From NCBI GenBank assembly GCA_023443725.1, contig JAEZTF010000004.1, positions 38,971-102,970 of the forward strand: a DNA stretch of 64,000 nucleotides. Reading direction: 5' to 3'. Position numbers: made by a program. Positions 60,001 through 64,000 of the stretch are shown one piece after another. Each line of letters begins with the position of its first letter. The stretch's first letter is position 1. Origin of the DNA: Candidatus Parcubacteria bacterium (GTDB lineage: Bacteria > Patescibacteriota > Microgenomatia > UBA12405).

Positions 60001-63000
60001 ACCAGAGAAATTTGGAGGAGATTTGGTCTATACCGAAGTCGACAAATTAATTGAAGACTATAAATCGGGTGAATTATTTCCATTGGATCTTAAAAATGGC
60101 CTGGCTGATTGGTTAATTGAAAAATTGGCACCAGCTCGTAAACATTTTGAAGAAGTAAAAGAAGCTAGAGAGGGATTGATCAAAATGAGAGAGTTGTTGG
60201 CCTTAAAATAATGAAAATACTGATCCACACTTGCTGTGCAGATTGTTTATTAAAAATAACGAATTCATTGAAAGACGAAGTGGTGGCTTATTTTTATAAT
60301 CCAAATATCCATCCAAGAGCAGAATATTTAGCTAGATTAAAAGCAATTCAAAAAATAACGAAAGATTATAATATTAAATTAATAGTGCCGGATTGGAGCC
60401 CAAAAGAATGGTTTAAGACAAATCCCTCTAAATCTCCCTTTGACAAGGGAGACTTTATAAAACCAAATAGATGTGAAAAGTGTTGGAACTTAAGATTAAA
60501 TAAAACATTTGAATATGCTAAAAAAAATGATTTTGAAGCAGTGACAACTACCCTACTTTCAAGCCATTATCAAAATAAGGAAATAATAGAAAAAATAGGA
60601 AAAGACCTAGAGAAAGAATATAAAATAAAATTTTTGGTACCAAACAAAATAAACAGAGAACTAAAAACTAGTGGTTTTTATAAACAAAATTATTGTGGTT
60701 GTGCATATTCTTTAGTAGAAAATTGGGAAAATAAATTTAGAACGATATAATTTTAAGAGTGATATAATGATCTTTACCTTAGAGATTTAAGAATAATTAT
60801 GGATAAATTAAAAGATTTTTTGACAAAATATAAGACAATAAAATATAAAAAGGGTCAAATACTGGTAAGACCGGGAGATACTTTTGATAAAGTGATAATC
60901 GAAAAGGAAGGATTTGCTAGAGTTTTTCAATCAAACGATGAAGGAAAAGAAGTTAGTTGGCCAGTATTAAAACCAATGTGGCTATATTCTTGGGTAACTG
61001 CTTTTAATAATAAAAAAAGTCAGTATTTTGTGGAAACAGTAACTAGTATGGAAGCTTGGGCAATCCCAATTGAAGATTTTGATAAATTTTTGAGAGAAGA
61101 AATTTATTTAGAGGTATCAAAAGGATTAATTGATTTATCTTTAAAAACCGAAAAGTTAATTTTGGCTGATGCTTATACAAAAGTAAAAATCTTATTGACC
61201 GATTTAGCTAGTAATTTTGGTAAAAAAACAGGTAAAGAAGTTTTGATTGATTTTAATATTCCCCATCGAGTCTGGGCAAGTGTAACTGGATTAACTCGAG
61301 AAACAGTAACCCTACAAATTTTGAAAATGCAAAAACAAGGTTTATTGAAAAATCAAAAAAGAACTATTTTGATTAAAGATATTGAAAAGTTAAAATAAAT
61401 TTATTCGCGACAACAATCGAGAATTTTGTTGATAGTTTGGCCGACTTTGCCTAAAAAATCTTTGGTTGGCAATGGTTTTTCTTCAAACTTAGTTTTTTTT
61501 GGGTCTGATTTGATTAATCCTAAATTTAAACTCCAAAAAAGATTATAAAGATCAAAAGATTTTTTGAAATAATCGTTGGCCTCTTTCTGGTCACCTTTGG
61601 TAAGGGATTTAGTACCGACTTCCATAAGTCTCATAGAAGCTGATAATAAGTGTTTACTGGTACACCAGACTTCACCTTGGCCTTCCTTGACGATCTTTTT
61701 CATTAACTCCTTTCTCATTTCCCGTGCAGTATTTAAAACATCGATATATTTGGTGTCGCCAAGCTTTTGGGAAGTAAAAAACATGTGTTCCTCAATTCCA
61801 ATAAGATTCATGATAGCAACGGACAAATCTTCTCCAGAAGAAAGATCGAGTTGATGACCTTTTTCTAAGCTTTTGGCTTTGTCGATAAATTTTTGAAGAT
61901 CTTTTTGATTCATAGTTTAGAAAAATAATTTTTAATTTGATTGTTTATTTTTAAAATTTCTTTTAAGTTGCTTTCTGTTTTTAGATTTTTCTTGGAATAT
62001 TCAAGAATCTCTGATATGCCACTTAGTTTATCACCAAATTGTTCCATCCAGGATAATTTTGGCATAAACCAAAAATGAAAATGAGAACGAATTTCCTTTT
62101 GAATTAAACTTATTTTTATATTTGGCAACGCTTGGTTGATGGCTTTTCTGGTCTGGATCAACAAATTATTAAAATCTTCAAGTTCTTCTTTGGAAAAATC
62201 TAGAATTGAAGAAATATGTCTTTTGGCAGAGATAATAATAAAACCAGGAATAGGAACTTCAACATCGGAAACGACAAGAAAATATTGTGATTCGTAGATT
62301 ATGCCACCATAAGGTTTGATTTCTCCTTTGGCTAGAGAACAACCAATACAGTCAGTAGCAATGGATTGATTGTCGACGGTGGTTAGTTGCATTAGAGATT
62401 GAAAATCAATTTAAAAGTAATGGTTAAGATAATTAGAATACCAACTGGAAAGACGACTTTTTGATATGGGAAAAGAATTTTGCCACCATTTAGAACACGT
62501 GATTTGCGATCAACAAAAATACCCAAAAGCCAAATTAATAAACCTAAAGATTGACCAAAAATAATTTTATCTAAACCAAGAATTTGATTACCAACAGAAC
62601 CGGTTTGATCAGTAAAAATAAAATAAGAAAGGGTTGCTCCAAGCATCAAAAGAGATAAAACGACAGGGTTACCAAAAAATCTATTTTTTATTTTTTGGGC
62701 TAACCAAAAAGAGATAGCAGTGTTGAGTCCTGAAATCCAAAGGGAAACTAAAAAATCATCGATACCAAGTTTTTTGGCCAGAATCATTCCACCACCAACG
62801 GTGACAATACAAACTGGACATTGAGCGTAAGCAGCTTTTACGAGAAACATAAGATGTTTAAATTATAACAACAAGACAGCCCCTAAAGACGGGGCTATCT
62901 TGTGGGCGGTTTATTTTTTAGAATTACAACCGCAAGAACACTTAGGACCGCAATTGCAGCTAGTGCAACCGCAGCTACATTTTTTTGATGCTGCCATATG

Positions 63001-64000
63001 TGGCCTCCATTTAAATTAATAATCAGTCGACTGCTTTAATAACACCAGTGACCATACCCATAGAACAAAAGAAACGATATGTTCCTGGTTTTTTAATAGT
63101 AAATTCAATAGAAGTGGGTTGAAAAGGCGATAATTTGATGGGTTTATCTAAAACTAAAGGAGAAATTATAGTGGTAGTACAACTAGTAATTCCTTTAGGG
63201 GTAATTTGCCAAATAATTGGAGTATTGGTTTTGACTTCAAAATAATCTGGAAGATAGGCAGAATTAGTTACCGACATATTAATAATTTGTTTCTGATCGG
63301 AAATCACAGTAGACGAAATATGTTTAAAGGGAAAGAGATTTTTGGTTTGATTAAAAATATTGGATAGAGCAAAAAACAAAATAAAAATACCAGCAATTAA
63401 AGAAAATTTTTGAGAAAGGGATGGGTTTTTAAAAAGTTTGGAACTAAAAAAACCAATTAATAAAAGACTAGGAGTAGTGCCGAGGACAAAAAGAAGAAGA
63501 ATAAGGGCCCCTTTAATAGGATTGGCAGAAATTAAAGCTGAACTTTGAGCGGTAAAAGTAAAACCACAAGGAAGAAGAAAAGATAAAATACCAAAAATAA
63601 CTGGTGAAAGAGTCGAAGAAAAAGTTTTTTTAAAAAATTTTTGAGGTAATAAGGAAAACTTAGGAAGTTGAATACCTAAAAGTGGTAAAGAAAAATAAAT
63701 CATAATTAAAGAAACAAGAACAATGACAATGGGTAAAAATGATGAAGAAATTTTGATAAAAGAGCCTAATAGTCCAAGCAAACCACCTAAAATAATAAAG
63801 GTAATAATTCTGGCAAAATTAAAAATTAAATGAGATTTAAAATTGGGCCAATTTGGAGAAATTGAAAGTAATAAACCACCGACAACAGCACTACAACTAG
63901 AAAGACTAGCTAAAATACCAAGAAAGAAAAATAATGGTAAAGAACTCTGTGAATCAAGATCAAGTAAAGGAAAAAGATTAAATTGATTTAAAAGAAAAAA

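Follow-up and report, generated by a model that had tools for sequence, protein, structure and literature searches.

A Cys-rich peptide gene and its expression signals

The stretch of DNA analysed here (the window) comprises 64,000 nucleotides (nt) from an assembly of Candidatus Parcubacteria bacterium (GCA_023443725.1, contig JAEZTF010000004.1, positions 38,971 to 102,970 of the forward strand), a member of the candidate phyla radiation (CPR). Close to its end lies a 28-codon open reading frame (ORF) on the minus strand. It is preceded by the gene for a membrane protein with a DsbD_2 transmembrane (TM) domain and a C-terminal cupredoxin domain (DsbD_2-cupredoxin), and followed by the gene for a second membrane protein, referred to as CPVC after a motif that it contains (Table 1). 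The first-pass annotation proposed that the ORF encodes a metallothionein-like peptide. This proposal is supported by the composition of the peptide, by the selection acting on its gene, by the copper-type neighbours and by the regulators found beside its relatives. The ORF is a genuine gene and, to judge from its sequence features, an efficiently translated one. Its product, of 28 residues and eight cysteines, is probably a metallothionein-like peptide that would bind soft metals as thiolates in the cytosol, most likely Cu(I).

Table 1. Features of the peptide locus, in window coordinates
Feature	Coordinates	Strand	Basis or position
DsbD_2 TM domain and C-terminal Cupredoxin_1 membrane protein, 3' 325 codons of 358 amino acids	63023..64000	-	Pfam
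Shine-Dalgarno sequence GGAGG	63004..63008	-	6 nt 5' of peptide ATG
28-codon ORF and TAA stop codon, encoding MAASKKCSCGCTSCNCGPKCSCGCNSKK	62911..62997	-	translation of window
Terminator-like hairpin: 13 pairs, 7 G-C, 7-nt loop, then T-rich tail TGTTGTT	62871..62903	-	folding
Extended -10 element TGTTATAAT	62862..62870	-	11 nt before CPVC gene ATG
152-amino-acid CPVC membrane protein, uncharacterised CPR family, AQCPVC at start of helix 1	62392..62850	-	AlphaFold2 (AF2) model

The ORF is present as first described and translates to MAASKKCSCGCTSCNCGPKCSCGCNSKK, with one correction: the peptide has eight cysteines rather than nine. These lie at positions 7, 9, 11, 14, 16, 20, 22 and 24, in the pattern CxCxC-xx-CxC-xxx-CxCxC, which amounts to five CxC spacings, one CxxC and one CxxxC. 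Metallothioneins were defined operationally as proteins of less than 10 kDa with ~15-30% cysteine, arranged as CxC, CxxC or CC, and with few or no aromatic residues (histidine being allowed, as in some bacterial forms). With 28 amino acids (aa), a mass of ~2.8 kDa and a cysteine content of 29% (8/28), the peptide lies within the size and cysteine limits of this definition, and the absence of F, W, Y and H from its sequence agrees with the limit on aromatic residues. No other small ORF in the window, which has a G+C content of 30%, is strongly Cys-rich; at that composition we estimate the chance of eight cysteines in 28 codons at ~1e-6 per ORF.

The expression signals noted in the first-pass annotation, a perfect GGAGG Shine-Dalgarno (SD) sequence upstream of the ORF and a hairpin downstream, are both present (Table 1). 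The scarcity of SD sequences in the other genes also holds, with 67 of the 70 non-overlapping long ORFs of the window lacking an SD-like motif in the correct place; the remaining three correspond to about the background rate. The hairpin begins 7 nt past the peptide stop codon. Its core, GATAGCCCC/GGGGCT(G/A)TC, is kept among relatives while the loop varies, and analogous terminators are also found 3' of related peptides. The extended -10 element that follows, TGTTATAAT, is identical in relatives. Since a terminator and an extended -10 element lie between the peptide gene and the CPVC gene, the peptide ends the upstream transcription unit. The CPVC gene, to go by these elements, is probably transcribed from a separate promoter with a very short leader.

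Many ORFs of the window have TATAAT 5 to 12 nt before the start codon (e.g. 3287, 40309, 25796-27169 and 62850). The combination of scarce SD sequences and start-proximal TATAAT suggests that leaderless or very-short-leader mRNAs are widespread in this CPR genome.

The ORF is under purifying selection

Homologous loci (L numbers) were gathered via the CPVC protein, from species-representative genomes and from contigs that encode near-identical CPVC proteins. The peptide ORF was found at L004, L167, L168, L170 and L173, each time directly 3' of a DsbD_2-cupredoxin gene. The peptide is 100% identical in six copies, which represent five haplotypes from independent samples. Five nucleotide sites vary across these haplotypes, and all five are synonymous third positions, where the synonymous-site fraction is 0.187 (p ~2e-4). 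When the window is compared with L004, the flanking proteins are just 78% (DsbD_2-cupredoxin) and 89% (CPVC) identical. The SD sequence is retained in all haplotypes (as GGAGG, GGGAGG, AGGAG or AGGAGG) despite a varying spacer, and the TAA stop codon is conserved. Related peptides have ratios of non-synonymous to synonymous polymorphism (pN/pS) of 0 to 0.41, with the Cys columns kept. Because all variation is synonymous, and because the SD sequence and the stop codon are kept, the ORF is coding and under strong purifying selection.

The first-pass annotation had named two observations that would speak against a gene, namely a lack of conservation in related genomes and the region being the 5' extension of a neighbouring gene. 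The pattern of synonymous change disposes of the former. The latter does not apply, as the conserved TAA, the terminator and the extended -10 element separate the ORF from the CPVC gene. It is also scarcely credible that the ORF is a product of chance or that the region is a conserved non-coding RNA element. The sequence from the DsbD_2-cupredoxin stop codon to the CPVC start codon is ~97% identical between the window and L004, and the peptide region folds well (z = -4.7), both of which would fit a non-coding element; however, the variation is confined to third codon positions at all five sites, the frame is maintained with its start codon, stop codon and Cys columns even in divergent relatives, and a search of the region against Rfam gave chance-level matches only. 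The codon-position pattern and the lack of an Rfam match exclude a non-coding element.

A family of short, unannotated Cys-rich peptides

The peptide belongs to a family. At two loci where CPVC is ~60% identical (L035 and L036), the same position is occupied by different ORFs of 26 aa and seven cysteines, MDKDKKCHCTPDCNCGCQDGSGCTCA and MTKDKKCTCGSDCSCGCQDGSGCTCG. Comparison of these two gives a pN/pS of 0.18, with every cysteine kept. Further relatives came from a scan of metagenome contigs with a degenerate DNA pattern. The pattern favours peptides with AAAAAA-TGY, and the scan yielded, besides chance hits, at least the relatives named here. Among the matches listed are a set of 33- to 37-aa peptides such as MEKDKKETCSCGCGCDCGCPEKKCTCGPECECGCNK, referred to as group A, and a large low-G+C set with one to three repeats of KKCNCxxxCTCGCQEGKECTC. 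The window peptide aligns to group A with one internal gap, sharing the motif CxCGPxCxCGCN(S)K, and scores z = 4.6 to 5.9 over composition-preserving shuffles (at most 1 in 3000 shuffles reaches the score). Against the L035 and L036 peptides, the corresponding values are z = 2.9 to 3.3. Selection is evident within group A as well, where the L058 and L110 genes differ by ten synonymous and no non-synonymous changes.

Existing annotation has largely passed over these peptides. A profile search with the wider motif family returned 163 predicted proteins at E <= 10, all of them unnamed or "hypothetical" and nearly all without a Pfam domain. An exact look-up of ten peptides in a collection of 15 billion proteins found none of them, which indicates that short family members are missed by gene callers. 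A phmmer search with a 30-residue translation from the window against 1.8 billion representatives gave no matches, an outcome to be anticipated with so short and biased a query and one that does not show the family to be absent; when four peptides were joined into one artificial query, two weak matches appeared, one of them an ArsR fusion. The window peptide itself matches no Pfam (E <= 1) or NCBIfam family. These peptides make up a new and so far unannotated sequence family, although their functional kind is a known one.

The wider motif also occurs fused to other domains, including an HMA domain (P0203), an ArsR-type HTH_5 regulator (P0241) and a ferredoxin (P0209). A version of it, CxCGPxCxCGCxEGKxCTC, is abundant in gut Bacilli. 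One 54-aa member of the wider family (P0220; L180-L183:4001-4165) occurs in 331 index blocks of mouse and human gut Bacilli genomes.

Copper-type regulators accompany the relatives

Several relatives are wired to regulators of the two classical copper-sensing types. Group A peptides are encoded by the last gene of operons that open with a 92-aa repressor of the CsoR family (Pfam Trns_repr_metal). By our count, this repressor has C34, H59 and C63, spaced as in the CsoR proteins that sense Cu(I). The operons are preceded by TTGACA-17-TAT(A/G/T)AT and by a conserved operator of the CsoR type, ATACCTACCCCCCAGGTAT, that is present in three of four loci and one base off in the fourth (L147). The L035, L036 and L090 peptides follow a repressor of the other type, Penicillinase_R (CopY/BlaI), with an N-terminal CNCH...C cluster, and at these three loci TACACTTGTA, which fits the cop-box consensus TACAnnTGTA, is placed after a TTGACA box and ahead of the peptide ORF.

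Other genes accompany group A peptides at individual loci. Between csoR and the peptide gene, L058 (oriented 5926-6534), L158, L101 and L128 encode a membrane protein of 202 aa that has CC at its N-terminus, one more Cys pair and an HMA-like C-terminus that has CSGH in place of CxxC; it has no Pfam match. At L110 (oriented 1530-3376), genes for an ACR3-like arsenite carrier and an ArsM-like methyltransferase, identified by reading the sequences, adjoin the group A peptide, which hints at a mixed metal(loid) resistance island.

Neighbouring genes

The first-pass annotation placed the ORF in a putative metal-handling cluster. This description appears sound, in view of the Cys and Met residues of DsbD_2-cupredoxin, of homologues that stand beside CopA and cop boxes, and of the csoR and CopY/BlaI-type repressor genes beside relatives of the peptide. 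The upstream protein matches DsbD_2 with E 2.6e-27 and Cupredoxin_1 with E 6e-09 in Pfam. Its stop codon lies 25 nt before the peptide ATG. It had been described as a 252-aa, 6-TM protein with a cupredoxin-like C-terminus; the cupredoxin domain is real, and the length is an artefact of the window end, because the frame is open to base 64000. The full gene, which encodes 358 aa, continues beyond the window on the same contig (L001). Across ~40%-identical homologues, one cysteine is conserved in each of two TM segments (SSC(S/A)A and LPCGFT), and the cupredoxin domain conserves the set C...C.MGM (Cys/Cys/Met/Met). The N-terminus is CPDC, a CxxC motif, or a full HMA domain in L030.

The copper association extends to homologous loci. 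At L029, L030 and L038 the order is DsbD_2-cupredoxin, an HMA-type P-type ATPase (CopA) and CPVC, such that the ATPase stands where the window has the peptide. Cop boxes lie immediately 5' of the CPVC genes in L031 and L033 and of the CopA-CPVC pair in L032.

Upstream, the gene order is Rrf2-IscS, NifU, DsbD_2-cupredoxin and peptide, with genes overlapping or closely spaced. The first of these genes, just past the window end (L001:2358-3881), encodes 507 aa in which an Rrf2 (IscR-like) DNA-binding domain is joined to a cysteine desulfurase of the IscS type. NifU comes next and overlaps, at its end, the start of DsbD_2-cupredoxin; the Rrf2-IscS fusion recurs in relatives.

The tight partner of the peptide is the DsbD_2-cupredoxin gene and not CPVC, to judge from which genes occur together. 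Co-conservation of the peptide with the CPVC gene, which had been proposed as a check, turned out to be weak, with 42 of 45 species-level CPVC loci lacking the peptide. Moreover, the close relatives L169, L171, L172, L174 and L175, in which NifU is followed directly by CPVC, lack both DsbD_2-cupredoxin and the peptide. Co-evolution of the peptide with the CPVC gene is rejected on both grounds. Since DsbD_2-cupredoxin and the peptide are present or absent together, they form a two-gene accessory module between NifU and CPVC.

Neither Pfam nor NCBIfam offers a match for the CPVC protein. Among its 653 homologues, those with a name come from Candidatus Shapirobacteria or Woesebacteria, which places the source organism among the CPR Microgenomates. 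The protein had been described as a 4-TM protein with an N-terminal CPVC; the motif is present, while the AF2 model (predicted local distance difference test score 80) has five helices, the first of which opens with CPVC. A Foldseek comparison of this model with the PDB found no significant fold match. In nearly all close relatives, the CPVC gene is followed on its 3' side by a gene for a 170-aa protein (61401-61913, minus strand, in the window) that has no family match and ends in ...DCCRE. The two are fused in L011, and the 170-aa protein may work together with the CPVC membrane protein. Other neighbours are a HIT-like protein, a Crp-type regulator and QueH.

Comparison with known metallothioneins

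Bacterial metallothioneins are regarded as rare; in reviews published up to 2025 they come down essentially to MymT and the SmtA/BmtA family (PMC7558416, PMC12193353). A literature search for metallothioneins in CPR or Patescibacteria, or for the peptide motif strings, brought up no relevant paper. In function, the nearest analogue is MymT of Mycobacterium tuberculosis, likewise a small, originally unannotated, Cys-rich bacterial ORF (Gold et al. 2008, via PMC7558416). MymT is predicted to bind up to six Cu(I) and is copper-induced (PMC7558416); its logic, that of a cytosolic Cu(I) sink, is the one proposed for the peptide. However, it has 53 aa, contains His and aromatic residues, is restricted to mycobacteria and has no link to a DsbD_2-cupredoxin. 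Alignment of the peptide to a provisional MymT sequence gave no score above shuffles (z = 1.6, with 248 of 3000 shuffles reaching it), which is a weak test.

The closest proteins in appearance are the 25-aa fungal copper metallothioneins of the Neurospora crassa/Agaricus type (~25 aa, seven Cys, six Cu(I)). These are eukaryotic, but they have a similar length, lack His and aromatic residues, and show a similar pattern rich in CxC-G (CNCGSGCSC in the Neurospora type; CNCGPKCSCGC in the peptide).

Members of the BmtA/SmtA family (Metallothio_Pro) are also small, Cys-rich bacterial metal buffers under the control of a metal-sensing repressor. SmtA differs in having 56 aa, in binding Zn via Cys and His, and in its zinc-finger-like fold (PMC7558416, PMC12193353). 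The peptide has neither the His ligands nor the aromatic residues of this fold; it does not match the family hidden Markov model (PF02069), and its score against a provisional SmtA sequence (z = 1.6) does not exceed shuffles. The vertebrate metallothionein beta-domain and Drosophila MtnA (Metallothio_5) likewise show CxC motifs, with 9 to 10 Cys over a length of 30 to 40 residues, and are Lys-rich or end in Lys. The peptide has no match to Metallothio_5 (PF02067), and its score against the human MT2 beta-domain (z = 0.1) is not above shuffles. Csp copper storage proteins likewise store Cu(I) on thiolates, in the cytosol or exported, in bacteria. They are, however, folded four-helix bundles of more than 100 aa with a Cys-lined core (PMC7558416).

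A model for peptide function

The peptide has no signal peptide, and the apo form would be unstructured in the cytoplasm. The thiolates of its CxC and CxCxC motifs would wrap several soft metal ions into a metal-thiolate cluster. The likeliest metal would be Cu(I), with perhaps 4 to 6 ions on each peptide if it resembles copper metallothioneins of seven to nine cysteines. The peptide would thereby buffer metal that would otherwise attack iron-sulfur (Fe-S) proteins. With its cytosolic N-terminal CxxC, its two TM cysteines and its outward-facing Cys2Met2 cupredoxin domain, DsbD_2-cupredoxin has the appearance of a relay for thiophilic metal across the membrane, and the peptide would be the probable cytosolic donor to, or acceptor from, this relay. 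We infer from sequence that the peptide binds metal, which metal this is and in what stoichiometry, and that DsbD_2-cupredoxin is its partner.

Copper poisons Fe-S clusters, and co-transcription of the peptide with Fe-S genes would for that reason be compatible with a protective role. Distant relatives have CopA where this Microgenomates clade has the peptide, which raises the further idea that the peptide replaced a copper efflux pump in the clade. The peptide would then serve as the dedicated cytosolic end of a Cys relay that passes through DsbD_2-cupredoxin, and the locus would be a two-gene "relay plus sponge" copper system that relies on sequestration and not on ATP-driven efflux, and that is co-expressed with Fe-S assembly to protect it. 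We regard this extension of the model as speculative and rather doubtful.

Several observations weigh against a copper metallothionein. The window copy is co-transcribed with Fe-S assembly genes instead of copper regulators; TACAnnTGTA is absent from the 64-kb window, and tblastn found no CopY, CsoR or CopA in it. In gut Bacilli, members of the broader family are encoded by stand-alone genes that lack a metal context; that of P0220, which has no metal genes around it, follows an ABC transporter gene. Arsenic genes at one group A locus mean that the metal could differ from copper. No known metallothionein model matches the window peptide, a profile search of the PDB with the peptide found no match, and the scores of its relatives against Metallothio_5 (10.8 to 15.9 bits, E 0.015 to 0.55) lie below the 25-bit gathering score. 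Finally, similarity among Cys-rich peptides is due in part to CxC periodicity. The peptide scores z = 3.9 against a provisional sequence of the Neurospora metallothionein, and because shuffling destroys CxC periodicity, the resemblance to the fungal proteins may be convergent.

Alternative explanations

The peptide could be metallothionein-like and serve another thiophilic ion, such as Zn(II), Cd(II), As(III) or Hg(II). Eight cysteines could hold two to three divalent ions, and the genes beside the L110 peptide, together with the ArsR/SmtB-type regulator among the fusion partners (P0241), point toward other metals. In addition, DsbD_2-type proteins with Cys pairs resemble MerT-type relays. Nevertheless, relatives are accompanied by CsoR-type regulators, which show the C-H-C fingerprint, and by CopY/BlaI-type regulators together with a cop box. 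HMA domains are present in the ATPases that take the homologous position, and cop boxes go with these ATPases. The peptide also lacks the His ligands of bacterial zinc metallothioneins. We regard a metal other than copper as unlikely.

A second possibility is that the peptide has a role in sulfur, persulfide or Fe-S chemistry and serves IscS-NifU, for instance by carrying thiols or persulfides or by holding a cluster. The tight packing of the peptide gene behind Rrf2-IscS, NifU and DsbD_2-cupredoxin is consistent with this role, as is the position of CPVC directly 3' of NifU in many relatives. However, most relatives have IscS-NifU without the peptide, and related peptides are found beside csoR or copY where isc genes are absent. 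The peptide also lacks the ferredoxin-like spacing CxxCxxCxxxCP. Lastly, the persulfide sensor CstR lacks the His that is part of the Cu-sensing CsoR fingerprint, whereas the CsoR homologue of the group A operons keeps it. A role in sulfur or Fe-S metabolism is quite improbable in light of these findings.

The ORF has some features of a Cys-rich leader peptide, in which ribosomes that stall at Cys codons would determine whether transcription continues past the terminator into the CPVC gene. It is short, devotes 8 of 28 codons to one amino acid, and is followed 7 nt after its stop codon by a terminator and then by a co-directional gene; L035 and L036 share this ORF-terminator-CPVC layout. Selection, however, acts on the whole amino-acid sequence and not on the Cys codons alone, as shown by 100% identity with synonymous change only. 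Both minimum free energy and centroid folds keep the terminator intact, with no antiterminator pairing to its 5' arm. At L058, L071, L101 and L147 the gene past the peptide terminator lies on the other strand, which leaves attenuation without a target. The CPVC gene has its own extended -10 box and has no link to cysteine supply. We reject attenuation, whose chance of being correct is very small.

Equally slight is the chance that this small, Cys-rich ORF encodes the precursor of a modified or secreted peptide, such as a bacteriocin, a disulfide-rich toxin or a ribosomally synthesised and post-translationally modified peptide (RiPP), some precursors of which (SCIFF, ranthipeptides) are Cys-rich; it is rejected because no maturase or exporter gene lies nearby (radical-SAM, YcaO, lanthipeptide synthetase, protease or ABC exporter), because the peptide has no leader or signal region, with Cys from residue 7 on, and because CxC spacing is typical of metal-thiolate clusters and not of disulfide knots.

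Implications and further observations

The family would add an unannotated sequence family to the short list of bacterial metallothioneins, most of its members being shorter than standard gene callers pick up. Its hosts include CPR bacteria, about whose metal homeostasis almost nothing is known, and several sublineages are wired to repressors of the two classical copper types. If these peptides bind Cu(I), cytosolic sequestration would be a commoner bacterial strategy against copper than has been assumed, and the uncharacterised DsbD_2-cupredoxin and CPVC membrane families would gain a functional context. Very short, readily synthesised metal-binding peptides would also become available for testing.

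Three minor observations concern the motif outside the loci described above. A short stop-to-stop fragment that matches the scan pattern, DKKCDCIFKRCRCGGDTG, recurs in human-gut contigs (L057, L076, L084, L089, L126, L129, L130 and L156) and is probably unrelated to the family. The wider motif is repeated in a hypothetical protein of Entamoeba histolytica (P0185). On contigs of very low G+C content, GrpE, encoded between hrcA and dnaK, has an N-terminal extension with the Cys motif, KKCNCTPECECGCQEGKECTC... (L059:4227-4868, L109:5050-5691 and L118:754-1431), giving a heat-shock co-chaperone with a metallothionein-like head.

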